This document shows, in pieces, positions 8,173 through 35,221 of a DNA stretch of 35,221 nucleotides. Each line of letters starts with the position of its first letter. Position 1 is the stretch's first letter. The stretch comes from Candidatus Eiseniibacteriota bacterium (GTDB lineage Bacteria; Eisenbacteria; RBG-16-71-46). Location of the stretch: contig JANMQY010000069.1 of the NCBI GenBank assembly GCA_031370785.1, forward strand, positions 1 to 35,221. The letters run 5' to 3'. Made by a program: the position numbers and the translations under genes. The notes under the pieces are model-generated. The model was not told the DNA's origin, searched no databases, and worked only from the letters and a program-made list of their open reading frames with translations.

Positions 8173-8178
8173 GCCGGC

Positions 8179-8207: not shown

Positions 8208-8227
8208 CGCCATGCGATCGGGGCGGA

Positions 8228-9757: not shown

Positions 9758-9842
9758 TCGGGGGGCCTTTCGAGGCGCAAGGGTGCGGTGCAGGATGGGT
9801 TCGGCGCTGCAATCGGGCGAAGAGTATAGCCTGCCGGCGGGG

Positions 9843-9878
9843 GGTCGCGCACAGCGGCGTGGTCGCGCACAACGGCGC
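9843..9878. repeat. Tandem 18-bp direct repeat (2 copies, 2 mismatches)
   Basis: GGTCGCGCACAGCGGCGT / GGTCGCGCACAACGGCGC in the divergent intergenic region. Confidence 0.7.
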
Positions 9879-9988
9879 GGGCCTGGACCGGCGGTGGTGC
9901 GGATCGGGGGGCGATCGGCTAACGTGCGCGCCAAGCGTGCCCGCGCGTTTCGCGGGGGTGAATCTCGGACATCAATCGGGAGGCCGCG

Positions 9989-14761: not shown

Positions 14762-15369
14762 GCGCGGCCGGAATCATCGGGGAGGCGCGGGTCCCGCCCG
14801 GCCGGCGGAGCTGGCACTGGCGCGAGCTCGCGCTCGGGCTGATCTGGGCGCTTCTGGCCGCGCTGGTTGCGCTCCATCTACTCGGCGTGTTCGGTCAGCA
14901 GATCGAGGAGAAGACGCACTGGATCGATCATGGCCGCAACGTAACGGTGCGTGACTACGTGGTGGGGCTGGGCAGCGTTTCCATTCCACAGGCGCTCTCG
15001 CGGGTCTCCATCTGGCTGATGCTTCGCATCGTCTGCTTCGCGTGGCTCGCGGTCCGGCTGTTCGGTCCGAGCGCGGCCGTCCGCCGCCCGGGGCTCGCGC
15101 TTGCGTCATGGCTGGCCTTCGACGCGGTGCAGTTGCTCACGGTGGGGATCGACGGCCGGCACTCTCCTCCCGGGTGGGGCCTGCTCGAATGGGCGCGCGC
15201 CTGGCCTCTCTCGAACGGCATCGACGGCGCGATGTTCGGCGAGGACTGGTTCAGCTGGGCGGCGTCCGATCTCCTGCTCGCGATCTCGCTGCGCGGGACG
15301 GTGGGCGTCGGGTTCTACTGGCTCAGGCACCGGCTGATCCGGCGGGCAGTGCCTGCTCCGGTGGTCTGA
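14758..15369 (+). CDS. Hypothetical membrane protein (about 4 hydrophobic segments)
   Basis: ATGA overlap with the sucB stop; fills the sucB-lpdA gap; Trp-rich hydrophobic segments. Confidence 0.7.
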
Positions 15370-15445
15370 GCCGCATGCACCATCGCCGCCCGCCTTCGCC
15401 GGCCGCCGCGACATCCGTATTCGGCGCCAACCTCTCGGGAACCCC

Positions 15446-19669: not shown

Positions 19670-20761
19670 ATGCCGCAACTCGAACTCGATCAGGTGACCA
19701 AGTCGTTCGGCCCGGGCGCTCCGGCGGTGGATCGCCTGAGCCTGCGCGTCGCAGATGGCGAATTCCTCGTGATGGTCGGACCTTCGGGCTGCGGCAAGTC
19801 CACCGCGCTGCGGATGATCGCCGGGCTCGAAGAGGTGACGTCGGGCACCATCCGCATCGGAGAGCGCGTGGTGAACGAAGTTCCGCCGCGCGACCGGGAC
19901 ATCGCGATGGTGTTCCAGAACTACGCGCTCTATCCGCATCTCACCGTATTCGAGAACCTGGCGTTCGGCCTCCGCCGGCGCAAGGTGCCCGAGGCCGAAG
20001 TCACGCGGCGGGTGCGCGAGACCGCGGCCACGCTCGGCCTCGAGCGCTACCTCGACCGGCGGCCACGCGCGCTGTCGGGCGGAGAGCGCCAGCGCGTCGC
20101 GCTCGGCCGCGCCATGGTGCGCGAGCCGCTGGTGTTCCTGTTCGACGAGCCGCTCTCCAACCTCGACGCGCGGCTGCGCGTGCAGATGCGCGGCGAGATC
20201 AAGCGTCTGCACCAGCGCGTGCGTGCGACCATGGTCTACGTGACCCACGATCAGGTGGAGGCGATGACGCTCGGCGACCGGATCGCGGTGTTGAAAAGCG
20301 GCGTACTCCAGCAGGTGGCGGATCCATTCACCCTGTACCGCGAGCCAGTCAACACCTTCGTCGCCGGCTTCATCGGCAGCCCACCGATTAACCTGGTGAC
20401 CGGGTCGGTCTCGGCGGATGGCGAGCCTGCGCTCCTCTTCGATGGCCATCGAGTGCGCCTGAGCGACCCGATCGCTGCCCGGCTCGCATCGCAACGGGGC
20501 GGAAATGTGATCGTCGGCGTGCGACCCGAGGACCTCTCGATCGCGAGCGCCGCGGGCGACATGTTCAGTCTGCCCGCTGTAGTGGATGTGTGCGAGCCGC
20601 TCGGCAACGAGACCCTGGTCTACTGGAAGACCGCGGGAGGGCCGGTGGTGTCGCGCCAGCCGGGCCTCGATGTCCCGCGCATGGGCGATCGGGCCATGCT
20701 GGTTGCCCCCTTTACCGCCTTGCGCTTCTTCGACTTGGCGACCGAGGGCGCCATTCCCTAG
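19670..20761 (+). CDS. Carbohydrate ABC transporter ATP-binding subunit (MalK/UgpC family)
   Basis: Walker A GPSGCGKS; VFQNYALYPH; LSGGERQR; FDEPLSNLD; YVTHDQVEAM; C-terminal TOBE-like region. Confidence 0.95.
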   Translation: MPQLELDQVTKSFGPGAPAVDRLSLRVADGEFLVMVGPSGCGKSTALRMIAGLEEVTSGTIRIGERVVNEVPPRDRDIAMVFQNYALYPHLTVFENLAFGLRRRKVPEAEVTRRVRETAATLGLERYLDRRPRALSGGERQRVALGRAMVREPLVFLFDEPLSNLDARLRVQMRGEIKRLHQRVRATMVYVTHDQVEAMTLGDRIAVLKSGVLQQVADPFTLYREPVNTFVAGFIGSPPINLVTGSVSADGEPALLFDGHRVRLSDPIAARLASQRGGNVIVGVRPEDLSIASAAGDMFSLPAVVDVCEPLGNETLVYWKTAGGPVVSRQPGLDVPRMGDRAMLVAPFTALRFFDLATEGAIP

Positions 20762-20965
20762 GCCGCCGCGCCCCTCCGGTTCGCGGCCCGGGAACACATC
20801 CATCAACACTCGCTGCGCGCCTGACAGGGCGGCGGAATGAGGGACACTTTCGCGGCATGTCGGTCAGGCGCGCGCCTCGCGCCCCGATCCTGCGATGCGA
20901 CGGCTAGGGACCCTCACCTTTCTCTCCGGCGCGGCTCTCTCCAACGCCCGCGCGCGGTTTAAATC

Positions 20966-21000
20966 TTGACAGTACGCGCGTCGTTTGTAATCGTTTACAT
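20966..21000 (+). promoter_or_regulatory. Promoter of the glycan utilisation locus with overlapping LacI-family operator
   Basis: Perfect -35 TTGACA (20966-20971) in an AT-rich patch; near-palindrome TGTAATCGTTTACA (20986-20999) with central CG, typical of LacI-family operators, covers the expected -10 position. Confidence 0.8.
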
Positions 21001-21155
21001 CACAACAAATCGAGCGCGAAGGCTCGTGATTGGCGAAGCAGATCGCGGTGCGATCCGTACGCCCCTCCCTGCACGTCCAGCCTCTCGAATGTCCATCCTT
21101 GCCGTGCCCGTCGCCGAGACCGGCGATGTGCCCTCGAACTCCAGGAGGCCCAGCC

Positions 21156-23054
21156 ATGAGAGCAGGATTCACCGCCACCCTGATCGTAGGCGCGCTCGCG
21201 TCCACGGCGCTCAACGCCTTTGCGTATCCGCCACGCCAGGACCTGATCTGGGCACGCTCGACCCTGGGCGCCCCGATCACCCTCGACGGCAAGCTCGACG
21301 AGGCCGCCTGGGCCTCTGCCGAATCCCACGTGATCCAGTACAGGGTGGACAGCGGAATCCCCGGCAGCGGCTGGCAGGAAGAAGGCGGGCTCCTCGCGAC
21401 CGACAGGACCAACGCCGTGCTCAAGTTCCTGGTGGTCGGCAATCAGCTGTACATGGGCGCGGTCATCAACGACAAGTCCATCGGCGGTTCGACCCAGTTC
21501 AACCGCTTCGACGGGCTCCTGATGGCGATCAAGGATCACTCGCTCGGGGCTCATCCGGCACCGCCCGCCGAGTATCTCTACTCGTGGTGGAACGATCAGG
21601 ACCCCAACGCGACGGATCCCGGCAAGATGCCGATCTTCATCGGCGCGTGGGCGAACCTGCCTCACGGCAGCCCGCGCTCGCAGGAGCAGATCGACAACTG
21701 GGACGCGGTCACGGTCGTGCACGGCACCACCAACACCGATGCGGTCGACGATACCAGCTACGTGGTCGAGATGCGCTTCAACCTGACGCCGATGGGCTAC
21801 GACGTGACCCAGCCGAGCGGCGATACCGTCGAGTGGAACGGCTCGATCTACGACTGTGACTGGATCTGGCCGACGCTCAACCCGACCAAGTTCAGCGTGA
21901 ATCGCACCTGGTGGCAGAGCCCGTGGGGCAACGATCACTGGTACCACGAGGTGCGCATCCGCGCGCGGCCCGACGTGACCATCAGCTCCGGTCCCGCTCC
22001 CGAGGTTCCGCCCGAGCTGATCATTCCGAATGCCGCGGGGTACCTGCCGCCGGCGGTCGACGGCTCGCTGACCGAGCCGGTCTGGGCCGCCGCGCCTTCC
22101 TTCGACATCCGCTACGGCGATGACGTGCTGCGCGCCTCCTACCCGGGCGTGGCCCAGTGGCGCGCCGGCCAGTTCCAGCCGACGGTCAACGGCGCCGTCG
22201 CGGCGGTGCTCGATCCGGGCAATTGCACCGTGAAGTACTTCTTCAAGGAGGACACGCTCTACCTGGGATTCGACGTGCGGGATCAGGTCGTCCAGTACCA
22301 CAGCCTGTTCGATCGCTGGGACGGCTTCCTCGTCTCGATCAATGACCGTGGCTCGGTCAATCGCGATCATGTCCTGAATCCCCGGCGGCTGACGTTCCAG
22401 GTCGGACCGACAGGGCAGGCGCTCGCGCGCGACTACCTGCCGTACCTGCGTGACACCCTGTTCGGGGCGAAGGTCGCGATCCATCTCAATCCGGGCACGG
22501 TCGTGGACACGATCGGCGACACCGCCGACAACGGCTACACCGCCGAACTGGCCCTCGATCTGACCAAGCTGGGATATCCACACGGGCGGGGCGACGGACT
22601 GGTGTTCCTCGGGATCGATCTTCTCGATGGCGACTCCTTCCAGCCCATCACCGACAGCTATGGGACCCGCACCTGGTGGTTCCGCGAGTACGAGGGCGAG
22701 GCGAGCTCCAGCTGGGCGTACATGGATGTGGGCACGGGGGTGACTGCGGTCGGCGACCTGGCGAAACCGGGCACGGTCGCGCTGCGCGGCAACTATCCGA
22801 ATCCGTTCGGCCGGTTCACGACCCTGCGCTTCTCGCTCACCCGGCCGAGCCGGGTCGGGCTCGAGGTGTACGATGTCCAGGGTCGAATGGTGTCGCAACA
22901 GGACCTGGGGATCATGACGGCCGGCGATCATCAAAGGGCCTTCGGTGCGCCGGGCCTCGTGACCGGTCTCTACCTGTACCGTCTCAAGGTGGCCGATCCC
23001 ACCGGCGGTTCGCCCGGCTCAGTCCTGACGGGCAAGATGATGTTCGTGAAGTGA
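21156..23054 (+). CDS. Secreted protein with two CBM9/DOMON-like sugar-binding modules and T9SS-type CTD
   Basis: SD AGGAGG before ATG 21156; internal duplication (ITLDGKLDEAAWASA / AVDGSLTEPVWAAA; YVVEMRFNLTPMGY / YTAELALDLTKLGY); tail NYPNPF...VYDVQGR...GLYLYRL...GKMMFVK. Confidence 0.8.
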   Translation: MRAGFTATLIVGALASTALNAFAYPPRQDLIWARSTLGAPITLDGKLDEAAWASAESHVIQYRVDSGIPGSGWQEEGGLLATDRTNAVLKFLVVGNQLYMGAVINDKSIGGSTQFNRFDGLLMAIKDHSLGAHPAPPAEYLYSWWNDQDPNATDPGKMPIFIGAWANLPHGSPRSQEQIDNWDAVTVVHGTTNTDAVDDTSYVVEMRFNLTPMGYDVTQPSGDTVEWNGSIYDCDWIWPTLNPTKFSVNRTWWQSPWGNDHWYHEVRIRARPDVTISSGPAPEVPPELIIPNAAGYLPPAVDGSLTEPVWAAAPSFDIRYGDDVLRASYPGVAQWRAGQFQPTVNGAVAAVLDPGNCTVKYFFKEDTLYLGFDVRDQVVQYHSLFDRWDGFLVSINDRGSVNRDHVLNPRRLTFQVGPTGQALARDYLPYLRDTLFGAKVAIHLNPGTVVDTIGDTADNGYTAELALDLTKLGYPHGRGDGLVFLGIDLLDGDSFQPITDSYGTRTWWFREYEGEASSSWAYMDVGTGVTAVGDLAKPGTVALRGNYPNPFGRFTTLRFSLTRPSRVGLEVYDVQGRMVSQQDLGIMTAGDHQRAFGAPGLVTGLYLYRLKVADPTGGSPGSVLTGKMMFVK

Positions 23055-23169
23055 GCCGTTCGGCAGCGTTCCTGAACTAGGCTGCTTGCGGTCGCACCTC
23101 GAGGCCGGGCGGGAGACGAATCCGCCCGGCTCGCGGTTGCAAGGCCGGCGAGACAGCCAGAGGGCGGGC

Positions 23170-25830
23170 GTGAGGGCGAGCACACGCGTGCGTGGATGGA
23201 GACGGTCGCTCGCCGGAGTCGCCTGCGCGATTCCCTTGCTCGCTGCATCCGCGAGCGCCGGCACCACCGGCCGCCTGAGCGGCCGGGTGGTGGATGCGAA
23301 GAACCAGCCGCTCGTCGCGGTCAACGTGGCGATTCCCGCGGCCCGCCTCGGCGCGATCACCGATTCCGACGGCGGCTACACCATCATGAATCTGCCCGCC
23401 GGGACCTACAACGTGCGCGTCAGCCTGCTGGGCTACGGTCCCAAGATGATCCAGGGCGTCGATGTGACCTCGGACAACACCACGCGGCTGGACGTGTCCC
23501 TCGTGGAAGCGCCGGTCGAGATGAAGGAGGTCGTGGTCAACGCGAAGCGGCCGGTGGTGAACGTGAACCTGACCAGCAACCTCGCCACCGTGAGCCGCGC
23601 CGAGATCCAGAAGCTGCCGGTGCAGGAGCTGAGCCAGCTGGTGGAGCTGCAGGCCGGCGTGGTGAGCCAGGGCGGGGACCTGCACTTCCGTGGCGGCCGG
23701 GGCGGCGAGGTGCAGTACCAGGTCGACGGAGTGTCGGTGAACAACAGCTTCGACAACAAGTCCATCCTTCACCTCGACCGATCGATCCTGCAGGAAGTGC
23801 AGGTGATCACCGGGACCTTCGACGCCGAATACGGACAGGCGATGAGCGGTGTGGTCAACGCGGTGCTGCGGCGCGGCACCGACCAGTTCGAGTGGGACGC
23901 CGAGAGCATGGTCGGCGGCTGGATGGCGCCGCGCGCGCACGGGCGCATCGACGTTCCGCGCGCCTACCCCGGCGACGTGCTGAATTTCCAGATCAGCGCG
24001 AGTGGCCCCACGCGGATGCCCGCGACCACCTACCTGGTGAACCTGCGGCGCGGCGTGAACAAAGACTGGGCGCGCAGCATGCGCGTATTCCAGCCGACGC
24101 GCGATCTGTCCCTCACCGGAACCAAGTACCTGCGGCCCGATGGCGACAAGGAGCGCGAGCCGCTCGGCTTCTCGGGTGAGTGGTCCGGGGTGCTCAAGCT
24201 ATCCAATCGTTCGCTGAAAAACGTCGAGCTCAACTACCAGGCGGTCCCGAACTACATCAACGGACAGCGCGGGCAGTGGGTCTGGCACGTGAATCCCGAC
24301 GGAATGACCGAACAGCGCACGATCTCGGTGGCACACGGCGTGGATGGGACCTGGACCCTGGGTAAATCGAGCTACCTCAACTTCATCGCCCGCGAAAACT
24401 ACTTCAACTATCGGGACATGAAGTACACGGACCTCTACGATCCGCGCTACGACGTCGCGGGGGGTGCGGTCGGCTCCCCGAATTACGCCGACGGCGCCAA
24501 CTACGCAGGTGTCGATCTGGGTCGCTTCACGCAGACCACCAACGCGCTGGTGCTCAAGAGTTCCTACGCCAATGACCTGAATCGCAAGAATCATCTGAAG
24601 GTCGGCGCCGAAACCCAGTGGTCGGTGATTCGCTTCGGCCATCCCGGATACCTCATCTATACGACGGTCGACAATGCGCAGCAGCTGGTGCGTTTCCAGT
24701 CCCGGCCTGATCTGCCGGCGGTCAGCGAGTACCAACCGGTGATGGGCGCGGCCTTCGTGCAGGACGAGATCGAGTGGGAGGACCTGCACGTGCGCGCGGG
24801 CTTCCGCTTCGACTTCTTCGACGCGCGCTCGACGTTGCCGAGCGATCTTGCGAATCCGGCGAATTCGATCGCCGGGGCTCCCGCATCCGTGCCGGTCCCG
24901 ACCACGGTCAAGTCCACCATCTCGCCTCGGATCGGAGTTTCGTATCCGGTCACGAAGGAATCGTCGCTGTACTTCGCGTACGGTCACTTCTACCAGATGC
25001 CGGCGCTGCGCGACATCTTCGACAACGCCGACTACTCGACGTTGAAAGATCTGCAGGCGCGGGTCAGCTACAGGGTCATGGGCAATCCGGACATTCGTCC
25101 GGAGCGCACCGTGCAGTACCAGTTCGGATACAAGCAGGCGATCACCGAGAATCTGGGACTGGACGTAAACGCCTTCTACAAGGACGTCCGCGACCTGCTC
25201 GGGACCGAGTTCATCTCGACCTACAACGATGCCGAGTACGCTCGGCTCGCGAATACGGATTTTGGAAGCGTTATCGGTGTGACCGTGGCGGTAGACCAGC
25301 GCAAGCTCGGGCCGATCAGCCTCGCATTGGACTACACCTGGCAGCTCGCGCAGGGCGATGCCAGCGATCCGCGCGAGACCGCGACGCGCGCGTCTCAGGG
25401 GCTCGACGCGAGGCCGCGGCAGATCCCGTTCAACTGGGATCAACGCCATACGCTCAACCTCACCACGTCGCTCGCGAAACCCGACGGGTATTCGGTGAGC
25501 AGTGTGCTGCGAGTCGCGAGCGGCCAGCCCTACACGCCGAGCAACTCGCTCGGTTACGGCCTCGAGGACAACTCGGGACGCAAGCCGCTCTCGTGGGTGC
25601 TCGATCTGCGCGGCGAGTCTCCGCTGCGCTTCTCGAGTCTCGCGATGCGAGGTTTCGCACGCGTGTTCAACGTGTTCGACACACGGTTCTTCAACGGCAG
25701 CGTGTTCGGGAGCTCTGGAAATCCGTATCAGTCCAGCAGTATCTCGGACCGAACCGCGCTCGGCGACCCGACCCGCTTCTACCCGCCGCGCCGGATCGAG
25801 ATCGGCGTGACCATGGGAGACGCGAAATGA
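23170..25830 (+). CDS. TonB-dependent receptor with N-terminal carboxypeptidase-regulatory-like domain
   Basis: Signal peptide then GTTGRLSGRVVD; plug HFRGGRGGEVQYQVDG and GTFDAEYGQAMSGVVN; barrel motifs SPRIGVSYPV, GNPDIRPERT. Start uncertain (GTG 23170 or 23188; ORF open from 23086). Confidence 0.92.
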   Translation: MRASTRVRGWRRSLAGVACAIPLLAASASAGTTGRLSGRVVDAKNQPLVAVNVAIPAARLGAITDSDGGYTIMNLPAGTYNVRVSLLGYGPKMIQGVDVTSDNTTRLDVSLVEAPVEMKEVVVNAKRPVVNVNLTSNLATVSRAEIQKLPVQELSQLVELQAGVVSQGGDLHFRGGRGGEVQYQVDGVSVNNSFDNKSILHLDRSILQEVQVITGTFDAEYGQAMSGVVNAVLRRGTDQFEWDAESMVGGWMAPRAHGRIDVPRAYPGDVLNFQISASGPTRMPATTYLVNLRRGVNKDWARSMRVFQPTRDLSLTGTKYLRPDGDKEREPLGFSGEWSGVLKLSNRSLKNVELNYQAVPNYINGQRGQWVWHVNPDGMTEQRTISVAHGVDGTWTLGKSSYLNFIARENYFNYRDMKYTDLYDPRYDVAGGAVGSPNYADGANYAGVDLGRFTQTTNALVLKSSYANDLNRKNHLKVGAETQWSVIRFGHPGYLIYTTVDNAQQLVRFQSRPDLPAVSEYQPVMGAAFVQDEIEWEDLHVRAGFRFDFFDARSTLPSDLANPANSIAGAPASVPVPTTVKSTISPRIGVSYPVTKESSLYFAYGHFYQMPALRDIFDNADYSTLKDLQARVSYRVMGNPDIRPERTVQYQFGYKQAITENLGLDVNAFYKDVRDLLGTEFISTYNDAEYARLANTDFGSVIGVTVAVDQRKLGPISLALDYTWQLAQGDASDPRETATRASQGLDARPRQIPFNWDQRHTLNLTTSLAKPDGYSVSSVLRVASGQPYTPSNSLGYGLEDNSGRKPLSWVLDLRGESPLRFSSLAMRGFARVFNVFDTRFFNGSVFGSSGNPYQSSSISDRTALGDPTRFYPPRRIEIGVTMGDAK

Positions 25831-28800
25831 GCGGCCGCATGCTCCGCCTTTCTGCTTTCGCGTCGCTAAGCGTGGCGCTTCTCGCGCTGGCGGCCTCGCG
25901 CGGTGCGGCGCAGCCCCTGCCGGTGGTCCCGAAGGCTCAGCGCAGCCAGATCGGCTCCGAGCGCAGCGGACTCCATGACGCCGCGAACATCCGCACCGTG
26001 TTCTGGAATTTCGGAATGGTCGGCGACTATCCGTCCGACCCGGGCAACGTGGACCTCAGCGTCTTCCACTCGGTCGAAGTGCCGAAAGGCTCGGGCATGA
26101 ACTATTCGGACGGAACCACGCCTTTCGTGCTCGCAAGGCGCGTGCAGCCCGACTCGAGCGTGTTCTTCATCATGGAGACCGGCTTCCGCGAGCGACAGGG
26201 GATCAGTCCGTACACCAATCGTCAGATGCGCTTCGAGCCGCGTCCCGGCTTCTTTCAGGCCGATCCCACGATCAACCAGGGCAGATCCCCGGCGGTAAGC
26301 AGCGATCCGCGCACCTGGCCGGACTTCTGGCCGGATCGGGTGAACGATCCCGACGATTCGGGCTGGCGCGGATCGTGGAACGGCTACTTCGGCAAGCGCC
26401 CGGCGGCGGACCAGGAAAGCTACTCGGTCATGGACGACGATGCGTTCGACGCGTGGCCTTCGTTCCTTCCCGACAGTCGCGATGCCACCCGGCGTGGCCT
26501 GGCGCTCCGTGTCGAGGTGCGTGGCTTCCAATGGTCCAATCCACAGGCCGGAAACGTGATCTTCTGGCACTACGACATCACCAACGAAGGCACCACCGAC
26601 TACGACGACGACATCATCTTCGGCATGTACATGGACTCGGGCGTCGGCGGCTCCTCGATCTCGTGCGACGGGATCTTCGAGTCCGATGACGACAATGCCA
26701 ACTTCGACCGGACCCAGGGCCTGAATCTGGTCTACACCTGGGACAAGAACGGCCACGGCCGCGATCTCTCGGGCCCGTGCGGAAAGACCGGCTACCTTGG
26801 GTACGCCTATCTCGAGACCCCGGGCAATTCGAGCGACGGTGTCGACAACGATCGCGACGGAATCAAGGACGAGCGGCGCGACGGGGGTCCCGGCATCCAG
26901 ATCTTCGGGCAGGCCGCGATCCTCGCGTATCTCGCGGCCAACTACGACACCGCGGCATTCATCGGCCACTATGGACCGCTCGCGGACCGGCCGGCCTACC
27001 GCGCGGGCGTGTGGTGGACCGGGGATGAGGACCTGGACTGGCGCGCCGACCTCAACGACGTGGGCACCGACGGCGTCAAGGACACGGGCGACACCGGCGA
27101 GGGAGACGGCATACCCACCGAAGGCGAGCCCAACTTCGACCGGACCGACATCGATGAGTCCGATCAGATCGGCCTGACCGGCTTCAAGATGAACCGCATC
27201 CGCGCCGGGCAGGGCAATCCGGATCCGACCGCCGACGACATCGTGTTCTACGACAACCCGAAGCACTGGCCCGAGACGCTGTGGGAACAGTTCACCAATT
27301 CGAACCCGGCAGCACGCTTCGACCCGCCCCTGCAGGAGAACTACAACATCGGGTTCCTCTTTGCCTCCGGGCCTTTCAAGCTCAAGGCCGGAAAGCGCGA
27401 GCGCTTCAGTCTCGCTCTCGCCTACGGCGCCGATCTGACCGAGCTGCGCGACAACGTGAAGACGGTCCAGCTGATCTACAACGCGAACTACCAGTTCGCG
27501 ACGCCCCCGGTGATCCCCACCGTGAGCGCCGAGGCCGGTGACCACTACGTGCGCCTGAGCTGGGATGACGTCGCCGAGCGCTCGTTCGACCCGGTAACCA
27601 ATGCTTACGACTTCGAGGGTTATCGTATCTATCGATCGACCGATCCGGACTTCCTCGATCCCAAGGTGATGGTGTCGGGGCGCGGAAACCCGCTGAATCA
27701 GCTCAACGGAAAGCCAATGGCGCAGATCGACCTGGCGGACGGACGGCGCGGCTATTCGAACATCGCGATCGAGGGCCTCGCATACTGGCTCGGCGATGAC
27801 ACCGGCCTCACGCACACCTGGGTCGACACCACGGCGGTGAATGGGCAGCAGTACTACTACGCGGTGTGCGCGTACGACTACGGGTTCGATCCCGCGATCG
27901 ACTCGACTGCGGCGCTCAACGGCTTCAAGCTGCCGGCGATCTATCCGAGCGAGGACCCGATCTCGATCTCGCGCACCCCGCGCGGGGGAATCATCTACCC
28001 GCCCAACGCGGTCGCGGTGCGTCCCAATCCACGGGTGCCAGGCTTCGAAAAGGCGAGCGTGGGACCGATCGCCCACGTTGCGGGCGACGGCACCGGACAG
28101 GTGGAAGTGCGGGTGGTGAACACCGACGAGGTCCCCGACGGTCACCTGTTCAAGATCGAGTTCACCGCGCCAGCGCCGGAGAGCATCCGGGCCACCGCAT
28201 ACTCGTTTACCGACAGCACCACCGGGCGGGTCCTGTTCACGACCGGCGCCGATCTGGACGGCGAGGGCACCGGGCCCGCGGCCTCGGGGCTGCTGCCGGT
28301 GATCTCGACCGGACCGTACGTGACGGTGGATTCGGCGAGTGCGTTCCGGCAGGGATATGTGACCAACACCCTGCTCAAGGCGGCCTACCAGACCACAGGC
28401 CGCCCGATCAACCAGCGACGCGACGGATTTCCCAACGACATGCGTATCGACTTCGACGACGTGGTGCAGGATACCGGAATCGCGCTCGGGGTCGGGTTCA
28501 CGGTCCCCCGGCCGGCGAAGTTCCGGGTCTACGCGCTGACGCCGCAGGGCGACCGGCAGCTCGACTTCCGATTCCGTGATCTCGACGCCAGCACCACTCT
28601 GAATCGCGCCGACGAGTGGATCGACATCTTGACCGGTCCCGGGCCCCCGTGGACGACGACCGACGTGACCTGGCGCGTCCAGCTCGACACGCTGGGCCAG
28701 GGGGTGCGCGGCCCGATTCGGGCGCCGGGCCTGGGCGATGTCTACGACCTCAAGATCCGCCGTCCGCTCAATGCGTCCGATGTGTTCGTGTTCCGGACCG

Positions 28801-29156
28801 ACAGCTCGCGCGTCAATGCCGCCGCCGGCAGGAACGCCGCGGCCGCTCAGAAGCCCTACGTCGTGCCCAATCCGTACGTGGGGGCGGCGAGCTTCGAGCC
28901 CGGGCGATTCGCCACTTCCGGGCGCGGCGAGAGACGCATCGAATTCCGCTCGATCCCGCTGGGCGCGACGATTCGCATCTACACCGTGCGCGGAGATCTG
29001 GTGCAGACGCTGCGCCAGGACGGATCGAGCGCGGGGTTCGTGGCGTGGAATCTGAGGAGCAAGGATAACCTCGACGTGGCGCCCGGACTCTATGTGTACG
29101 CAGTCGAGGCGCCGGGGTATTCGAGCACGGTCGGAAAGTTCGCGGTGATCAAATGA
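25827..29156 (+). CDS. Large (1109 aa) secreted protein of unknown function with acidic loops, FN3-like module and variant T9SS-type CTD
   Basis: ATGA overlaps at both ends; signal peptide; DGVDNDRDG and DVGTDG..DTGEGDG loops; VRLSWD..FEGYRIYRS..YYYAVCAYD; tail YVVPNPY...IRIYTVRGDLV...WNL...PGLYVYAV...GKFAVIK. Confidence 0.88.
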   Translation: MSGRMLRLSAFASLSVALLALAASRGAAQPLPVVPKAQRSQIGSERSGLHDAANIRTVFWNFGMVGDYPSDPGNVDLSVFHSVEVPKGSGMNYSDGTTPFVLARRVQPDSSVFFIMETGFRERQGISPYTNRQMRFEPRPGFFQADPTINQGRSPAVSSDPRTWPDFWPDRVNDPDDSGWRGSWNGYFGKRPAADQESYSVMDDDAFDAWPSFLPDSRDATRRGLALRVEVRGFQWSNPQAGNVIFWHYDITNEGTTDYDDDIIFGMYMDSGVGGSSISCDGIFESDDDNANFDRTQGLNLVYTWDKNGHGRDLSGPCGKTGYLGYAYLETPGNSSDGVDNDRDGIKDERRDGGPGIQIFGQAAILAYLAANYDTAAFIGHYGPLADRPAYRAGVWWTGDEDLDWRADLNDVGTDGVKDTGDTGEGDGIPTEGEPNFDRTDIDESDQIGLTGFKMNRIRAGQGNPDPTADDIVFYDNPKHWPETLWEQFTNSNPAARFDPPLQENYNIGFLFASGPFKLKAGKRERFSLALAYGADLTELRDNVKTVQLIYNANYQFATPPVIPTVSAEAGDHYVRLSWDDVAERSFDPVTNAYDFEGYRIYRSTDPDFLDPKVMVSGRGNPLNQLNGKPMAQIDLADGRRGYSNIAIEGLAYWLGDDTGLTHTWVDTTAVNGQQYYYAVCAYDYGFDPAIDSTAALNGFKLPAIYPSEDPISISRTPRGGIIYPPNAVAVRPNPRVPGFEKASVGPIAHVAGDGTGQVEVRVVNTDEVPDGHLFKIEFTAPAPESIRATAYSFTDSTTGRVLFTTGADLDGEGTGPAASGLLPVISTGPYVTVDSASAFRQGYVTNTLLKAAYQTTGRPINQRRDGFPNDMRIDFDDVVQDTGIALGVGFTVPRPAKFRVYALTPQGDRQLDFRFRDLDASTTLNRADEWIDILTGPGPPWTTTDVTWRVQLDTLGQGVRGPIRAPGLGDVYDLKIRRPLNASDVFVFRTDSSRVNAAAGRNAAAAQKPYVVPNPYVGAASFEPGRFATSGRGERRIEFRSIPLGATIRIYTVRGDLVQTLRQDGSSAGFVAWNLRSKDNLDVAPGLYVYAVEAPGYSSTVGKFAVIK

Positions 29157-30190
29157 ACGCCGTTCGACAGAGTATCCGTGTGGCGAGTGTGGGTCTGACG
29201 CTGGCGCTCGCGACCTTATGCGTTCCGGCCGACTCGGCTGCTCAGAGCAAGAGTGGCACTTCGTTCGGGAGCTTCCTCCAGATCGAACCGAGCGCGCGGG
29301 TCGCCGGCATGGGCAACGCCGGCGTCTCGATCGACGGCGGGCTGGAGACTGCCTATTACAACCCGGCCGCGGTCGGACGGCTCGATCGCTGGACGTTCAC
29401 GTTCAATCACGCGGCCTGGTTCGCCGACATCACCTACGACTACGCGGCGCTCGGCGCGCCCATGGGCAAATGGGGAAACGCATTCCTGACCCTGACCATG
29501 CTCGGCTCCGGCCAGATGGACGTGCGCACCGTCCAGAGCCCGCTCGGCACCGGTGAGACGTTCACCGTCAGCGATGCCGCGCTCGGACTCGGATACGCGC
29601 TGGAAGTGACCGACCGCTTCTCGGCCGGCGGGCAGATCAGCTGGGTGCAGGAGCGCATCTGGCACAGCACCGCGGGCACCGTCACCTTCAACCTCGGCAC
29701 GCTGTACCGGACCTCGGTGAACGGGCTTCGCATCGGAGCGAGCCTCGCCAACTTCGGGACGCAGTCGCGCTTCGATGGGCGCGACCTGCGCATCCTGTTC
29801 GACCAGGATCCCTCGATTCATGGCGACAACGGCACGCTACCCGGGTCGATGTTCACCGACGCGTTCTCGGTCCCGGTGATGTTCCGCGCCGGCATCGGCC
29901 AGGCGTTCCAGGTCGCGAATGATGCGCGGCTCGACGTCGTGCTGGATGCGTTCCATCCGGGCGACAACACCGAGAGCATCAGCGCGGGCACCGAGCTCGA
30001 GCTGCGCAAGACGCTCGCGCTCCGCGCCGGCTATCAGAATCTTTTTCTGCAGGACTCCGAGCTGGGGCCGACTCTGGGCGCCGGCATACTCGGAGAGCGT
30101 CCTTCCTTCCACTACCGTGTGGACTACGCGTGGGCCGATCAGGGGCGTCTGGGAAGTTCCCACCGCTTCTCGCTCGGGCTGCGCTTCTGA
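29153..30190 (+). CDS. PorV/PorQ-family outer-membrane beta-barrel (FadL-like)
   Basis: FLQIEPSARVAGMGNA, AYYNPAA, LRAGY, VDYAW, HRFSLGLRF ending in a C-terminal Phe. Confidence 0.88.
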   Translation: MNAVRQSIRVASVGLTLALATLCVPADSAAQSKSGTSFGSFLQIEPSARVAGMGNAGVSIDGGLETAYYNPAAVGRLDRWTFTFNHAAWFADITYDYAALGAPMGKWGNAFLTLTMLGSGQMDVRTVQSPLGTGETFTVSDAALGLGYALEVTDRFSAGGQISWVQERIWHSTAGTVTFNLGTLYRTSVNGLRIGASLANFGTQSRFDGRDLRILFDQDPSIHGDNGTLPGSMFTDAFSVPVMFRAGIGQAFQVANDARLDVVLDAFHPGDNTESISAGTELELRKTLALRAGYQNLFLQDSELGPTLGAGILGERPSFHYRVDYAWADQGRLGSSHRFSLGLRF

Positions 30191-30203
30191 TTCTGGAGAC
30201 CTG

Positions 30204-31778
30204 ATGACCCGCCATGCACCCTTGCTCATGCTCCTCGCCGCGCTATCCCTCGGGCCCGCTCCGGCCCGCGCCCAGACCACGGACGCGGTCCTCGACACGC
30301 TCCAGCACACCGCCTTCGATTACTTCTGGGCCGAGGCCAATGCCTCGAACGGGCTGGTCAAGGACCGCAGCACCGGGACTTCTCCTGCCAGCATCGCCGC
30401 GGTGGGCTTCGGACTCTCGGCGATCTGCATCGGCACGGATCACGGCTGGGTGAGCCGGGCGACGGCGCGCGACCGGGTGCTGACCACGCTTCAGACCTTC
30501 TGGAACGGACCGCAGGGGAACGCCGCGTCCGGGATGATCGGCTACAAGGGGCTCTTCTACCACTTCCTCGACATGAACACCGCGACCCGCACCTGGGATT
30601 CGGAGCTGTCGACCATCGACACCGCGCTCCTGTTCGCGGGAATCCTCGACGCGAAGCAGTACTTCGACGGCGGTGACGCAGGTGAAATCCAGATTCGCGC
30701 ACTGGCCGACTCGATCACGCGGCGCGCGGACTGGACCTTCACGCGGAATTTCAGTCCGGGCATTTACATGGGGTACAAACCGGGCACGGCCTTCGGGGGA
30801 TTCGGGAAGTGGGTCGGATACAACGAGGCCATGATCATGTACATCATCGCGATGGGCTCGCCGACTCACCCGGTGCCCGGCACCGACTGGAGCAAGTGGA
30901 CCAGCGGCTACAGCTGGGGCACGCAGTATGGTTACACCTACCTCATCTTCCCGCCGTTGTTCGGGCACCAGTACTCGCACTGCTGGATCGATTTCCGCTC
31001 GATACAGGACAGCTACATGCGGACCAAGGGGAGCACGTACTTCATCAACTCGCGCAGCGCCACGCTCGCGCAGCAGGCCTATTGCATCGCCAACCCCGGG
31101 GCATGGACCGGCTACAGCTCGACGCTGTGGGGCCTGACCGCCGGGGATGGTCCGTTCGGCTACAACGCGCGGGGCGCGCCTCCCGCGCAGAACGACGACG
31201 GCACGATCGCGCCGACCGCGGCCATCAGCAGCCTGCCGTTCGCGCCCGAGATCGTGTTGCCCACCATCGACAACTTCTGGAACAACTATCGGGCTCCGCT
31301 GTTCGGGCCCTACGGATTTCGCGACGGGTTCAACCTGACCTACTCGTGGTATGACACGGACGTCCTCGGCATCGATCAGGGTCCAATCATCCTGATGATC
31401 GAGAACTACCGCACCGGATCGGTGTGGAACCGGATCAAGCAGAACCCGGACATCCAGGCCGGACTGGCTCAGGCGGGATTCAGCGCGGTCCTCGCGGTTT
31501 CACCTCCCGTGGCACCGGTGGACCTCTCGTTCTCGTCCTTCCCGAACCCGTGGACGCACTCGACGTCGCTGCGCTTCCGCCTGCCTTCGGCCGGGCCGGT
31601 TCGACTCTCGGTCTACGATCTGGCCGGGCGCGAGGAGCTTCGTCTGGTGGACGGCGTGATGTCGGCGGGGGATCACGCGATTCCGCTCGTGAACGGAACG
31701 CTCGGCGCGGGCCTGCACCTGTATCGACTCGAATGGAACGGCAAGCACCGCACGCTCAAGGGAATCCGCCTCCCGTGA
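30204..31778 (+). CDS. GH144-like ('glucoamylase family') glycoside hydrolase, putative beta-1,2-glucanase, with T9SS-type CTD
   Basis: SD GGAG; signal peptide; SIAAVGFGL, KGLFYHFLD, ELSTIDTALL, GYNEA, PLFGHQYSH, WGLTA, DGTIAPTAA, GIDQGPI; tail FPNPW...VYDLAGR...GLHLYRL. Confidence 0.88.
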   Translation: MTRHAPLLMLLAALSLGPAPARAQTTDAVLDTLQHTAFDYFWAEANASNGLVKDRSTGTSPASIAAVGFGLSAICIGTDHGWVSRATARDRVLTTLQTFWNGPQGNAASGMIGYKGLFYHFLDMNTATRTWDSELSTIDTALLFAGILDAKQYFDGGDAGEIQIRALADSITRRADWTFTRNFSPGIYMGYKPGTAFGGFGKWVGYNEAMIMYIIAMGSPTHPVPGTDWSKWTSGYSWGTQYGYTYLIFPPLFGHQYSHCWIDFRSIQDSYMRTKGSTYFINSRSATLAQQAYCIANPGAWTGYSSTLWGLTAGDGPFGYNARGAPPAQNDDGTIAPTAAISSLPFAPEIVLPTIDNFWNNYRAPLFGPYGFRDGFNLTYSWYDTDVLGIDQGPIILMIENYRTGSVWNRIKQNPDIQAGLAQAGFSAVLAVSPPVAPVDLSFSSFPNPWTHSTSLRFRLPSAGPVRLSVYDLAGREELRLVDGVMSAGDHAIPLVNGTLGAGLHLYRLEWNGKHRTLKGIRLP

Positions 31779-32908
31779 TGCCCGAGAGACGCAGTCGCCG
31801 CAGGAGCGCGGGGCCGGTTCCCGCGACCATCCGCGACGTGGCCCGCGTGAGCAAGGTGAGCATCGCGACGGTCTCGCGCGTGTTCAACGACAGCACGCTG
31901 GTGAGCGGGACCACGCGGCAGCGCGTGCTCGCGTCGGCCTCGCGTCTCGGCTACTGGCCGAACGGCATCGCGCGCAGCCTCATCACCAACCGCACGCACA
32001 CGCTCGGCGTACTCATGCCCGACCTGCACGGCGAGTTCTTCTCCGAGGTCATTCATGGGCTGGACCTGAAGGCGCGCGAGCGCGGATTCCACATCCTGGT
32101 CTCGCGTTCCAGCTCGACCGCCGAAGAGCTGACCGCGGCGCTGCGTTCCATGCGCGGGCGCGTGGATGGCCTGATCGTGATGGCGCCGGCGCTGGATCAG
32201 GCAGAGGCGATCGGACCGTTGCTAGGAGACCTGCCGACGGTGCTTCTCAATCCGGAGGGCGGTAGCGCCGGCTGCGACTCGATCGCGATCGCCAACCGGG
32301 ACGGCGCGCGCGCCATGGTGCGGCATCTGATCCGCGTCGGCCACCGCCACATCGCGCTGATCACCGGACCCACCGACAACATCGACTCGCGGCAGCGGCT
32401 CGAGGGCTACCAGGCCGCGATCCGCGAGTCGGACGCCGAGGCGGCCGAGGACCTGGTTTCCGTCGGAGATTTCGGCGAGCGCTCGGGATACGATGCGGCG
32501 GTGAAGATCCTGGAGCGCACGCCCCGACCTACCGCTGTGTTCGCCGCAAACGACTACATGGCGGTGGGTGTGATCGGGGCGCTTGCAGATGCCGGGCTCA
32601 GCGTGCCCGAGGATATGGCGGTGGTGGGGTTTGATGACATCCCGCTGGCGCGCTATCTGACTCCGCCGCTCACGACCGTACACGTCGACATGCTGCGGCT
32701 CGGCGAGCGAGCGGTGGATCTGCTGCTCGAGCGTCACAGCCCGGGCGCGACGGACGGCGCGACTCATGGCACTTCTGATGGCCCGCGACAGGAGATCCTG
32801 CCGACCACGCTCGTGGTCCGCGGCTCGTGCGGGTCACGCCCTCCGGGTGCGGGAGAGAGCGGCGGCCGCTGGAATCGCATTCACCCGGCGCGCGGTTCCC
32901 GCCACTAG
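31778..32908 (+). CDS. LacI-family transcriptional regulator
   Basis: HTH ATIRDVARVSKVSIATVSRVFN; hinge ARSL; AVFAANDYMA; VPEDMAVVGFDD; PPLTTV; TGATG overlap with the upstream gene. Confidence 0.96.
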   Translation: MPERRSRRRSAGPVPATIRDVARVSKVSIATVSRVFNDSTLVSGTTRQRVLASASRLGYWPNGIARSLITNRTHTLGVLMPDLHGEFFSEVIHGLDLKARERGFHILVSRSSSTAEELTAALRSMRGRVDGLIVMAPALDQAEAIGPLLGDLPTVLLNPEGGSAGCDSIAIANRDGARAMVRHLIRVGHRHIALITGPTDNIDSRQRLEGYQAAIRESDAEAAEDLVSVGDFGERSGYDAAVKILERTPRPTAVFAANDYMAVGVIGALADAGLSVPEDMAVVGFDDIPLARYLTPPLTTVHVDMLRLGERAVDLLLERHSPGATDGATHGTSDGPRQEILPTTLVVRGSCGSRPPGAGESGGRWNRIHPARGSRH

Positions 32909-32915
32909 ACCGACC

Positions 32916-34445
32916 GTGCCGCCCTCGACCGCAGGGAAGGGGGGTTGCCTGGACGCATCGCGCCATGGCGAGCCGCTTCGCCGCGCCCTCCGGGGCCTGC
33001 TCGTGCTCGCGATCGCCTTCGCCGGCACGACGTGCCACAGCGCGGCGCTTCGCGCACCGCAGGGGCTTGCGAGTCGGACGCCGGACGCTTTGGCCGGCAC
33101 GCTCGCGCCGCACGAGATCGCGTTTCTCGACACGCTCGAGCAGCGCACCTTCCTCTGGTTCTGGGATCTGAGCGATTCGCTGACCGGGCTCACGCCTGAT
33201 CGCGCGCCGACCCCCTCGTTCGTCAGCGTCGGTGCGATCGGCTTCGCGCTCACGGCGTATCCGATCGGCGCCGAGCGTGGCTGGATCACGCGCTCCCAGG
33301 CTGCGACGCGGACGCGAAGGACGCTCGAGTTCCTGTGGCGCGCACGTCAGGACAGCGCCTCCTCGGGCTCGGCCGGCTACCGCGGGTTCTTCTATCACTT
33401 TCTCGATCCCCGGACCGGAACGCGATTCGAGCGCGTAGAGCTTTCCACCATGGACACTGCGCTGCTCATCGCCGGCGCGTTGTTCTGCGGCTCGTGGTTC
33501 GACCACGTCGACCCGGACGAGTTCCGCATCCGCGCGCTTGCCGAATCGCTCTACGCCCGCGTGGACTGGGCGTGGACGGTGGTGCGTCCGCCCACCCTGT
33601 CGCTGGGCTGGAGTCCCGAGAACGGACACCTGCCCTATGACTGGCGCGGCTACAACGAGGCCATGCTGCTCCACATCCTGGCGCTCGGCTCGCCGACACA
33701 CCCGGTCGACCCCGCGGTGTGGAGCGCCTACACCTCGCGCTATCGCTGGGGCACCTTCTACGGCTATCCGCATCTTGGATTTGCGCCGCTGTTCGGGCAC
33801 CAGTACACCCACGTGTGGGTCGACTTCCGCGGAGTGTCCGACGCATGGATGCGCGGGCGCGGGCTCGATTACTTCGAGAATTCGCGGCGCGCGACGCTCG
33901 CGCAGCGCGCCTACGCCATCGCGAATCCCGGCTCGTTCCGTGGCTATGGAGCGGAGTTATGGGGGCTGACCGCATGCGACGGGCCGCTGGACGCGAAGCT
34001 CGAGATCGCGGGGCGGACGCGCGAGTTCCGCACCTACGCCGCGCGCGGCGCCTCGTTCACCGAGATCGTCGACGATGGCACGATCGCACCCACCGCGGCT
34101 GGCGGGTCGGTTCCGTTCGCGCCCAGGGAGTGCGTCGCGGTGCTGCGCGCGATGCGCGCGAACTACGGGGAAATGGCCTTCAACCGCTACGGCTTCGTCG
34201 ATGCGCTGAATCCGACGCTCGACCGCATGGTCGACGTGCACCACGGCCGGATCGCAGGCGGCGTCGGATGGTTCGACACCGATCAGCTCGGGATCGATCA
34301 GGGTCCGATACTGGCGATGATCGAGAACGCGCGCAGCGGCCTGGTGTGGCGGGTCATGCGCCAGAATCCGCATGTGGTGCGCGGGCTGCGCCGCGCAGGA
34401 TTCGCGGGCGGATGGCTCGACTCCGCGGGGACGGGGGCGCGATGA
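32916..34445 (+). CDS. Second GH144-like glycoside hydrolase, no CTD, possibly a lipoprotein
   Basis: GFFYHFLD, ELSTMDTALL, GYNEA, PLFGHQYTH, WGLTACDGP, DGTIAPTAA, GIDQGPI; leader LRGLLVLAIAFAGTTC. Start uncertain (GTG 32916 chosen as first in-frame start after the lacI stop). Confidence 0.88.
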   Translation: MPPSTAGKGGCLDASRHGEPLRRALRGLLVLAIAFAGTTCHSAALRAPQGLASRTPDALAGTLAPHEIAFLDTLEQRTFLWFWDLSDSLTGLTPDRAPTPSFVSVGAIGFALTAYPIGAERGWITRSQAATRTRRTLEFLWRARQDSASSGSAGYRGFFYHFLDPRTGTRFERVELSTMDTALLIAGALFCGSWFDHVDPDEFRIRALAESLYARVDWAWTVVRPPTLSLGWSPENGHLPYDWRGYNEAMLLHILALGSPTHPVDPAVWSAYTSRYRWGTFYGYPHLGFAPLFGHQYTHVWVDFRGVSDAWMRGRGLDYFENSRRATLAQRAYAIANPGSFRGYGAELWGLTACDGPLDAKLEIAGRTREFRTYAARGASFTEIVDDGTIAPTAAGGSVPFAPRECVAVLRAMRANYGEMAFNRYGFVDALNPTLDRMVDVHHGRIAGGVGWFDTDQLGIDQGPILAMIENARSGLVWRVMRQNPHVVRGLRRAGFAGGWLDSAGTGAR

Positions 34446-35221
34446 CTCGCATGCTCCGCACGGCGCTCGTCCTGGCCGTTGCCTGCGCCACTGCCGGCTG
34501 CCGTGACGACGCACGCGCTCCGCTTCGCTTCTGGGCGATGGGGCGCGAGGGCGAGGTCGTGCGCGATCTGGTCAGGGACTTCGAGCGCGAGACCGGCATC
34601 CGCGTCGAAGTGCAGCAGATCCCGTGGTCGGCGGCGCACGAGAAGCTGCTCACCGCCTACGTCGGGCGCTCGACCCCGGACGTGGCGCAGCTCGGGAACA
34701 CCTGGATCTCCGAGTTCACCGCGCTACATGCGCTCGATCCGCTCGATGCGCGGGTCGCATCGTCCGCGACTCTGACCCGCGAGTCGTTCTTCCCCGGAAT
34801 CTGGGACACCAACGTGCTCGACGGCACGACCTGGGGGATCCCGTGGTACGTCGACACGCGGGTGCTGTTCTACCGCCGCGACCTGCTCGCCCGCGCTGGA
34901 TACGATTCGATACCGGGCACGTGGGAGGCATGGCGCACGTGCATGCGCGCGATCAAGCGCCAGGCGGGCGATCAGAAGTACGCGATCTTCCTGCCGACCA
35001 ACGAATGGACCGTGCCGGTGCTGCTCGGGCTGCAGGCCGGTTCGCCCTTGCTGGCCGACGAAGGTACGCGCGGCGCGTTTGCCGCGCCCGAATTCCGCCG
35101 GGCGTTCGATTTCTACATCGGGCTGTTCCGCGAATCGCTCGCGCCACCTCTCTCGGGCACGCAGATCGCGAATCTCTACCAGGAGTTCGAGCGCGGCTAC
35201 TTCTCGATGTACGTGACCGGC
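34442..35221 (+). CDS. Sugar ABC transporter substrate-binding lipoprotein (truncated by window end; absent from the ORF track)
   Basis: ATGA overlap with the upstream stop; MTRMLRTALVLAVACATAGC lipobox; LRFWAMGREGE, QQIPWSAAHEKLLTA, PDVAQLGNTW, GIPWYVDTRVLFYR. Confidence 0.92.
   Translation, partial: MTRMLRTALVLAVACATAGCRDDARAPLRFWAMGREGEVVRDLVRDFERETGIRVEVQQIPWSAAHEKLLTAYVGRSTPDVAQLGNTWISEFTALHALDPLDARVASSATLTRESFFPGIWDTNVLDGTTWGIPWYVDTRVLFYRRDLLARAGYDSIPGTWEAWRTCMRAIKRQAGDQKYAIFLPTNEWTVPVLLGLQAGSPLLADEGTRGAFAAPEFRRAFDFYIGLFRESLAPPLSGTQIANLYQEFERGYFSMYVTG

Follow-up and report, generated by a model that had tools for sequence, protein, structure and literature searches.

A candidate SusD-independent glycan-uptake cassette of a TonB-dependent receptor, an unnamed surface protein and a PorV/PorQ-family barrel in Candidatus Eiseniibacteriota

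We analysed a stretch of 35,221 nucleotides (nt) of Candidatus Eiseniibacteriota bacterium (assembly GCA_031370785.1, contig JANMQY010000069.1), referred to below as the window. It contains three coupled genes, which encode a TonB-dependent receptor, a 1109-aa protein of an unnamed family and an outer-membrane barrel of the PorV/PorQ family. The trio is likely an undescribed and widespread variant of the glycan uptake known from polysaccharide utilization loci (PULs), in which the principle of a C-terminal domain (CTD) seated on a cognate barrel has been borrowed from type IX secretion systems (T9SS). On balance, we lean towards a model in which the 1109-aa protein is exported by the T9SS, is docked through its C-terminus on the adjacent barrel, captures fragments of beta-1,2-glucan and passes them to the receptor. 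The three genes are the following.

23170..25830, + strand: TonB-dependent receptor with CarboxypepD_reg, plug and beta-barrel domains (886 aa)
25827..29156, + strand: surface protein of 1109 aa from an unnamed family; predicted signal peptide, supersandwich, FN3, two beta-sandwiches, C-terminal domain
29153..30190, + strand: PorV/PorQ-family outer-membrane barrel (345 aa; NF033709)

The stop codon TGA of the receptor gene and the ATG of the large gene share an ATGA at 25827-25830, and the ATGA at 29153-29156 is common to the stop of the large gene and the ATG of the barrel gene, exactly the two overlaps on which a preliminary description of this DNA had based the coupling of the trio. The receptor starts with a GTG at 23170, in frame with a longer open reading frame from 23086. 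The GC content of the window is high (0.64-0.72).

By its domain order, a plug followed by a TonB-dependent beta-barrel, the product of the first gene is a TonB-dependent receptor. It matches PF00593 (90.2 bits), PF13620 (67.0 bits) and PF07715 (37.7 bits), with plug and barrel above their cut-offs. The SusC/RagA model TIGR04056 attains 68.8 bits, against 368 required, and covers only residues 64-186, which correspond to the CarboxypepD_reg domain and the start of the plug. Judged by these profiles, the receptor is outside the SusC/RagA family. A sequence search of the PDB returned no close solved relative of the receptor.

The absence of a SusD-like gene next to the receptor, pointed out in the preliminary description, extends well beyond the locus. 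The SusD_RagB and SusD-like_3 profiles found nothing at the locus or anywhere in the source genome (3.44 Mb, 147 contigs, rated 100% complete), and SusD_RagB matched in none of 101 sampled genomes of the phylum, 90 of which are of high quality. By the CAZy PULDB definition, that of an adjacent susC-like/susD-like pair, the locus is not a PUL, although it works like one: no susD was found, and its receptor is unlike SusC.

The 1109-aa protein has no match to any Pfam family, even at E 10. Its signal peptide (residues 1-28) carries no lipobox cysteine. An AlphaFold2 model built from a 56-row alignment reached a predicted local distance difference test (pLDDT) of 82.8 and a predicted template modelling score (pTM) of 0.77, and is almost all beta. 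After the signal helix, the chain runs through an N-domain (40-556), FN3 (560-690) and a pair of beta-sandwiches (725-995) to a short helix and a closing beta-sandwich at the C-terminus (1010-1109). Foldseek placed PorZ (5m11) as the best match of the whole model (E 1.5e-6), followed by FN3 arrays and PorU (6za2), with no SusD-like structure among the matches. These whole-model matches have low TM-scores (about 0.1) and represent the noise of multi-domain beta-sandwiches; the N-domain was therefore folded alone.

The isolated N-domain (pLDDT 85.6, pTM 0.86) is, by structure comparison, a galactose-mutarotase-like supersandwich (Z 19.8, 255 residues aligned, root-mean-square deviation 3.1), a fold that accompanies the catalytic domains of glycan-active enzymes. 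Its best matches are the N-terminal domains of GH15/GH94/GH116-type enzymes, and further matches comprise GH94, GH116 and GH65 enzymes, including the 1,2-beta-oligoglucan phosphorylase 5h3z (Z 15.4). The alignments fall on the N-terminal accessory domain of these enzymes (chain ranges of about 15-320) and not on the catalytic barrel. About half of the 517 residues of the N-domain are insertions, rich in invariant Asp and Gly motifs. From the models, the N-terminal half is probably a non-catalytic, glycan-binding head.

Two other folds were considered for the 1109-aa protein. A SusD-like fold is ruled out by the all-beta model, the missing lipobox and the lack of a SusD Pfam domain. A catalytic glycoside hydrolase fold is ruled out as well, since only accessory N-terminal domains are matched and no catalytic (alpha/alpha)6 barrel. 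A partner with neither fold, as the preliminary description had supposed, is thus what the structure searches indicate.

The C-terminal domain resembles those of T9SS proteins. When the last 130 residues of 56 family members were compared with profile models, 53 matched the C-end of the PorZ model, 37 the C-end of PorU and 27 TIGR04183, the last counted at E <= 0.01. A profile of the family C-terminus had PorZ 5m11 (E 0.004) and PorU 6za2 (E 0.012) as its sole matches in the PDB, and an ESM Atlas search returned unnamed clusters only, the nearest named ones carrying Por_Secre_tail. Over 54 orthologues, identity to the protein of the window is 0.65 in the C-terminal domain, 0.63 in the N-domain and 0.36-0.44 in the stalk (0.54 overall). 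In contrast, the CTDs of the neighbouring secreted proteins are less conserved than their bodies, with 0.36 versus 0.45 for a CBM9-like protein and 0.24 versus 0.57 for a GH144 enzyme, the value of 0.24 being lowered by orthologues that have no CTD. This pattern of conservation is stronger evidence than the PorZ and PorU matches, which are weak. By analogy with PorZ-PorQ and PorU-PorV, we infer that the domain would be retained rather than cleaved.

The barrel reaches 169.3 bits on the PorV-family model NF033709 (cut-off 90), residues 40-345 aligning to profile positions 5-326. It is below the equivalog cut-offs of both PorQ (NF033711, 85.9 bits of 220) and PorV (NF033710, 42.6 bits of 250), and the PorQ score, which covers the N-terminal 190 residues, exceeds the PorV score. 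As far as profiles tell, it is a PorQ-leaning member of the PorV/PorQ family and the equivalog of neither. A profile of 53 barrel orthologues also matches the solved PorV of F. johnsoniae (6h3i_F) with E 1.1e-24.

The source genome has 12 matches to the PorV-family model, in which nine genes exceed the cut-off. The true porV is on another contig, C142, directly after porU (NF033707, 466 bits; Peptidase_C25), and has the best PorV score of the genome (133 bits on NF033710). The barrel of the window as the genome's only or housekeeping porV is thereby ruled out. In the barrel tree, it belongs to a clade with the cassette barrels of other phyla (100% support in the Shimodaira-Hasegawa-like approximate likelihood ratio test), apart from its paralogues in the same genome; the deep branches of this tree are long and unresolved, and a single clade of all receptor-linked barrels is only suggested, by tblastn ranking. 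These results support a paralogue private to the cassette. Of the dedicated PorV paralogue put forward earlier, the dedication is retained, whereas the name PorV is too narrow for a protein that scores nearer to PorQ.

The same genome encodes two further full trios, on contig C133 (969 + 1010 + 358 aa; L013:5056-12077) and on contig C16 (937 + 991 + 317 aa; L014:4478-11235), as well as a receptor-barrel pair on contig C32 (L015:5029-8830). In tblastn searches, the receptors and barrels of the window, C133, C16 and C32 are each other's best paralogues, which suggests that the cassette was duplicated as a unit; the barrel tree, with its poor resolution at depth, gives no proof of this. PorV-family paralogues on contigs C7 and C84 also adjoin proteins that end in a FlgD-Ig/CTD-like domain.

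A complex model of the barrel (residues 31-345) with the C-terminal domain of the large protein (1005-1109) gave a confident interface, as the preliminary description would have it, with an ipSAE of 0.88-0.89 in three runs and of 0.00 for the best of three controls. The mark used for docking was attained by 116 of 157 solved complexes and by 2 of 215 mismatched pairs. At least 92% of the contacts were common to the runs, with partner pLDDT of at least 78. Predicted interface residues are more conserved than the others, both on the barrel (0.66 versus 0.45, p 7e-5) and on the C-terminal domain (0.72 versus 0.56, p 0.008). The model supports a C-terminal domain that would sit on the barrel as a CTD sits on PorV; it speaks to neither the privacy nor the permanence of the contact.

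A search with the 1109-aa protein retrieved 3482 representative clusters at E <= 0.001 and 505 at E <= 1e-30. The best 120 of 3301 matches in the annotated collection were all unnamed or called 'hypothetical protein', and devoid of Pfam domains. A scan of one genome per species yielded 597 relatives, and the synteny counts given here refer to the best 80 loci. These belong to Eisenbacteria, Krumholzibacteriia, Ignavibacteria, Calditrichia, KSB1, Rhodothermales, Fibrobacteraceae, Neomarinimicrobiota and Stahlbacteria, so that, as judged by homology, the large-protein family is present in at least nine lineages of the Fibrobacterota-Chlorobiota-Bacteroidota (FCB) group. Within the phylum, 48 of 101 genomes match the large protein at E <= 1e-20. 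In some genomes of the phylum (G031, G036, G096 and G003), the large gene appears to be split or to contain in-frame stops, with four TGA codons in G031 and three pieces in G036; such genes may be pseudogenes or assembly errors.

Homologues of the three genes are co-located, as the preliminary description implied. The receptor is present in 74 of the 80 loci, the other six having at most 210 nt upstream of the match, and the barrel in 73, the other seven having at most 148 nt downstream, so that the misses are all at contig ends. Every related locus with room keeps all three genes, an arrangement far from chance, and the order receptor, large protein, barrel on one strand is found in all but one locus (L099). 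Among the 54 cassettes that are complete, most inferred junctions are a -4 overlap or measure less than 30 nt. The -4 overlap occurs at 19 receptor/large-protein and 18 large-protein/barrel junctions; as starts were inferred by a script, these counts are approximate. The surroundings are also recurrent: CBM9-like relatives are directly upstream of the receptor in 61 loci (50 with alignments of at least 500 residues), GH144 relatives are downstream of the barrel in 52, and LacI relatives occur in 28, mostly at the upstream end.

FastTree phylogenies of the three genes (55 rows) are largely congruent, another outcome expected of a working unit in the preliminary description, with 31, 37 and 33 of 52 splits in common (about 0 when labels were shuffled) and with patristic distances correlated at r 0.81-0.92. 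More distant cassettes, defined by a large protein 34-41% identical to that of the window, are found beside other enzymes: GH94 and GH144-CBM30 in L087, GH16-malectin and GH3 in L090 and L092, GH13 with an SSF transporter and TrmB in L094, and CBM20 with LamG cargo in L098.

Around the trio, the sugar locus reported in the preliminary description is well defined, with five further genes on the same strand.

21156..23054, + strand: CBM9-like secreted protein, opening the conserved locus, with an inferred start at ATG 21156 preceded by AGGAGG
30204..31778, + strand: GH144-family glycoside hydrolase with signal peptide and type-A CTD (PF10091)
31778..32908, + strand: LacI-family regulator (PF00356, PF13377)
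33003..34445, + strand: second GH144-family enzyme (PF10091); start uncertain, 32916 or 33003
34442..35221, + strand: ABC-transporter solute-binding lipoprotein (PF01547); the gene is cut by the end of the window

The CBM9-like protein shows a weak CBM9_1 match and carries a canonical T9SS type-A CTD (TIGR04183, 26.2 bits for a cut-off of 23); the PDB held no useful sequence match for it. By family profile, both flanking enzymes are members of GH144, the endo-beta-1,2-glucanase family (PF10091, 267 bits for the first and 263 bits for the second), and PDB matches comprise the endo-beta-1,2-glucanase 5gzh (E 3e-57), XCC2207 8xul (E 1e-116) and BDI_3064 5z06. The type-A CTD of the first GH144 enzyme scores 23.6 bits. 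The second has no Por_Secre_tail match and matches no NCBIfam family at E <= 0.1, hence not TIGR04183 either. The ABC binding protein scores 88.7 bits on PF01547 and has a lipobox-like N-terminus.

Only 13 nt separate the stop of the barrel gene from the start of the first GH144 gene, the ATG of the LacI gene overlaps the stop of that GH144 gene by one base, and the ATG of the ABC binding protein overlaps the stop of the second GH144 gene by ATGA. The + strand of 20700-33000 showed no terminator-like site, and the promoter/terminator scan was otherwise uninformative. Because this same-strand run is tightly spaced, it is likely an operon that is longer than the trio alone. In metatranscriptomes (two libraries of one study; runs X9/X10/X12), contigs of 18-20 kb that are about 93% identical span the whole locus (window 20925-32000), at a depth of 19-52 versus about 3 in the larger DNA run of the same sample. 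This is a hint of expression in a close relative, as contigs cannot prove transcription and DNA may have been carried over.

The trio can be compared with three known systems. Like SusC/SusD (RagA/RagB) and the utilisomes, it pairs a TonB-dependent transporter bearing a CarboxypepD_reg-type domain with what would be a surface-exposed, non-catalytic partner, set in a locus that is regulated and also encodes glycanases, both secreted and periplasmic, and an importer of the inner membrane. It differs from SusC/SusD in that the receptor falls outside the SusC/RagA family, in that the partner is all-beta and combines a signal peptide and a T9SS-type CTD with the lack of a lipobox, whereas SusD is an alpha-helical lipoprotein, and in that a third gene, the PorV-like barrel, is obligatory.

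The closest parallels for the other half of the cassette are PorZ-PorQ and PorU-PorV of the T9SS attachment complex of Porphyromonas gingivalis. In these too, a family barrel is paired with a protein whose CTD is kept, as it would be in our case, and the C-terminal domain of the family matches the C-ends of PorZ and PorU. According to the portions of PMC10202324 available to us, PorZ and PorU are T9SS components known to retain their CTD and are seated on PorQ and PorV, respectively. The pairing found here differs in belonging to a nutrient-uptake operon, beside a TonB-dependent receptor, and not to the secretion machinery, and the body of the protein is unrelated to the beta-propellers of PorZ or the peptidase of PorU. 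Type-B CTD cargo of Flavobacterium (SprB-SprF) is likewise encoded beside its own PorV-like barrel, of the PorP/SprF type (PMC10202324, same portions), but the C-terminal domain described here is nearer to type A and has no link to gliding.

In the model that we favour, the 1109-aa protein would cross the outer membrane through the SprA pathway, keep its C-terminal domain and be held by its own barrel beside or over the receptor. The secreted GH144 enzyme and the CBM9-like cargo, with their ordinary type-A domains, would cut and hold the polymer outside the cell. The supersandwich head would bind the beta-1,2-glucan chains cut by GH144 and hand them to the receptor. By analogy, the tethered protein would act as the glycan-binding partner of the receptor, the role taken by the lipoprotein SusD in Bacteroidia. 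Oligosaccharides would then cross through the receptor, be trimmed by the second GH144 enzyme, putatively periplasmic, and be imported by the ABC system under LacI control. A more ambitious proposal is that the trio forms a stable three-part machine and a general glycan-uptake architecture of non-Bacteroidia FCB phyla (Eisenbacteria, Krumholzibacteriota, Ignavibacteriota, Calditrichota, KSB1, Rhodothermota, Fibrobacterota, Marinimicrobia and Stahlbacteria), re-used with different enzymes for each polymer. It would be an alternative to, or a forerunner of, SusC/SusD, in which a protein-protein anchor replaces lipidation. We put this forward tentatively, as a possibility that has somewhat more against it than for it.

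Several observations weigh against the favoured model. The Calditrichia metagenome-assembled genome (MAG) with locus L099:736-9677 is rearranged, with two tandem large-protein paralogues (36% and 28% identical to the protein of the window) before the receptor and barrel. Congruent trees are expected of any operon inherited as a unit and show co-inheritance, not contact. A supersandwich fold in common does not show that the 1109-aa protein binds glycans. The neighbours of the C133 and C16 trios are GWxTD-domain proteins (PF20094) and housekeeping genes, with no recognisable carbohydrate-active enzymes (CAZymes) among them; because of this, the cassette need not be glycan-specific and may serve other substrates too.

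Further reservations concern anchoring and export. The C-terminal domain of the 1109-aa protein itself misses TIGR04183 (E <= 0.1) and is not among the genome's 89 matches to this model, its PorZ and PorU matches are weak (E 1e-4 to 1e-8), and many ordinary CTDs of the same genome also match the PorZ C-end. PorV has been solved in complex with cargo (6h3i, 8gl6 and others), and the docking pass may stem from likeness to these structures; the modelled contact would fit a private anchor or a shuttle alike and says nothing on specificity against the housekeeping PorV. The core T9SS genes named in the preliminary description were recovered in part. SprA (387+116 bits), PorU and PorV are present, and the type-A CTD model finds about 89 matches in the genome. 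Models for GldK, GldL and GldM (TIGRFAM) and GldM_1st (Pfam) matched nothing, GldN not being among the models; most controls were blank too, and those for GldL, GldM and GldM_1st in every T9SS-bearing control genome, so that divergence is indistinguishable from absence. PorP/SprF had no match in the genome or in the control genomes, which is no evidence of absence. The export route is therefore partly documented, the motor/ring part of the T9SS being undetected, very divergent or replaced.

The docking result bears directly on an explanation in which the barrel is a dedicated shuttle only: it would bring the protein from the SprA translocon to PorU, where the CTD would be cleaved and the protein linked to lipopolysaccharide or released, leaving no lasting complex. 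Such a transient contact fits the docking model equally well, PorU and SprA are present in the genome, nearly half of the family C-terminal domains (27 of 56) attain TIGR04183, and available portions of PMC10202324 describe a general role of PorV for type-A cargo. We nevertheless regard a mere shuttle as unlikely. A single PorV, the porU-linked one, presumably serves the proteins behind the roughly 89 type-A CTD matches, so that a shuttle kept for one cargo calls for an explanation; conservation within the protein peaks in the C-terminal domain, which is not so for the CTDs of its neighbours; and large protein and barrel are paired strictly one to one across phyla. If the barrel were instead a FadL-like passive channel or general porin, co-regulated and merely co-transcribed with no physical tie, its weak similarity to Toluene_X (FadL; 19.4 bits, below the cut-off) and the relatedness of the PorV family to FadL would be accounted for. 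This is very improbable, given that the matches to the PorV/PorQ family and to the solved PorV are much stronger, that the predicted docking engages the best-conserved residues on either chain, and that other family barrels of the genome also adjoin CTD-bearing proteins.

The fold of the N-domain raises the question of whether the large protein is an enzyme or processing factor, for example a non-canonical glycanase or lyase built on the supersandwich. All its top structural matches are domains of glycan-active enzymes, galactose mutarotases (match ranks 22-50) use the supersandwich catalytically, and the N-domain is highly conserved with invariant acidic residues. We consider a catalytic role improbable: the domains matched are accessory N-terminal ones without the catalytic (alpha/alpha)6 barrel, no CAZyme or other Pfam family is found on the protein, and a family that occurs beside GH144, GH16/GH3 and GH13 alike fits generic capture better than one chemistry. 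As for the receptor, it could work outward like Oar of Myxococcus, a precedent for an outward-working receptor, and help to secrete or assemble the large protein rather than import glycans. Its CarboxypepD_reg-type architecture is common among Oar-like proteins and one paralogue matches PF25183, but the locus holds glycanases, LacI and a sugar ABC binding protein, and the cargo has a T9SS-type C-terminal domain in a genome with SprA, which makes outward work a very remote prospect.

To our knowledge, what is understood of glycan capture at the outer membrane comes almost entirely from the SusC/SusD pairs of Bacteroidia, and our results point to a widespread, uncharacterised alternative. If the favoured model is true, it would account for the harvest of polysaccharides by phyla that lack SusD, many of which are abundant in soils and sediments, would provide annotators with a marker for PUL-like loci outside Bacteroidota, and would carry the PorZ-PorQ principle, that of a CTD retained on a cognate barrel, over from secretion into nutrient uptake. 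Cultured carriers, Rhodothermus marinus (by annotation) and Ignavibacterium album, make the model directly open to test.

In the full-text literature searched, limited to open texts and to parts of them, we found no description of the trio, only unremarked annotation in PMC9530828 and, implicitly, in PMC8861115; neither discusses it in the main-text passages and supplement text searched. The alginate locus of R. marinus has in a row a receptor gene (2805 nt), a gene for a T9SS type-A protein (2181 nt) and a PorV/PorQ protein gene (1056 nt), and this trio (tonB-hypA-hypB) adjoins alginate lyases (Fig. 2 legend), according to the accessible text of PMC9530828. Its middle protein is shorter (about 726 aa) and is a putative relative of the 1109-aa protein. 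For I. album, of which a MAG is among the loci with the full trio (L049), the passages of PMC8861115 available list a beta-1,2-glucanase cluster in which GH144 and GH94 enzymes are accompanied by an ABC binding protein and by a TonB-dependent transporter, described as 'without biochemical evidence'. In the xylan locus of R. marinus, which also holds a SusC/SusD pair, a TonB-dependent receptor gene precedes genes for three hypothetical proteins whose predicted attachment to the cell is by a Por CTD (Rmar_1070-1073), as given in Table 1 and the text excerpts of PMC6987092. If these genes are the same cassette, it can coexist with SusCD.

Other genes of the window lie upstream of the locus. A membrane protein of 608 aa, encoded at 335-2161 (- strand), has a TMEM260-like protein O-mannosyltransferase domain (PF11028, 51 bits). 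The gene at 2422-3498 (+ strand) encodes a plastocyanin/azurin-like copper protein ending in a T9SS type-A CTD (FlgD_ig and TIGR04183), which would be a secreted or surface cupredoxin. In the region 6487-9934 (- strand), a 561-aa tetratricopeptide-repeat protein adjoins one of 568 aa that weakly resembles ABC_transp_aux/DUF4350 and bears a type-A CTD (8240-8461). The genes of the 2-oxoglutarate dehydrogenase complex occupy 10548-16843 (+ strand), with E1 at 10548-13343, E2 ending at 14761 and E3, dihydrolipoyl dehydrogenase, at 15446-16843; a 203-aa open reading frame of no family lies between E2 and E3.

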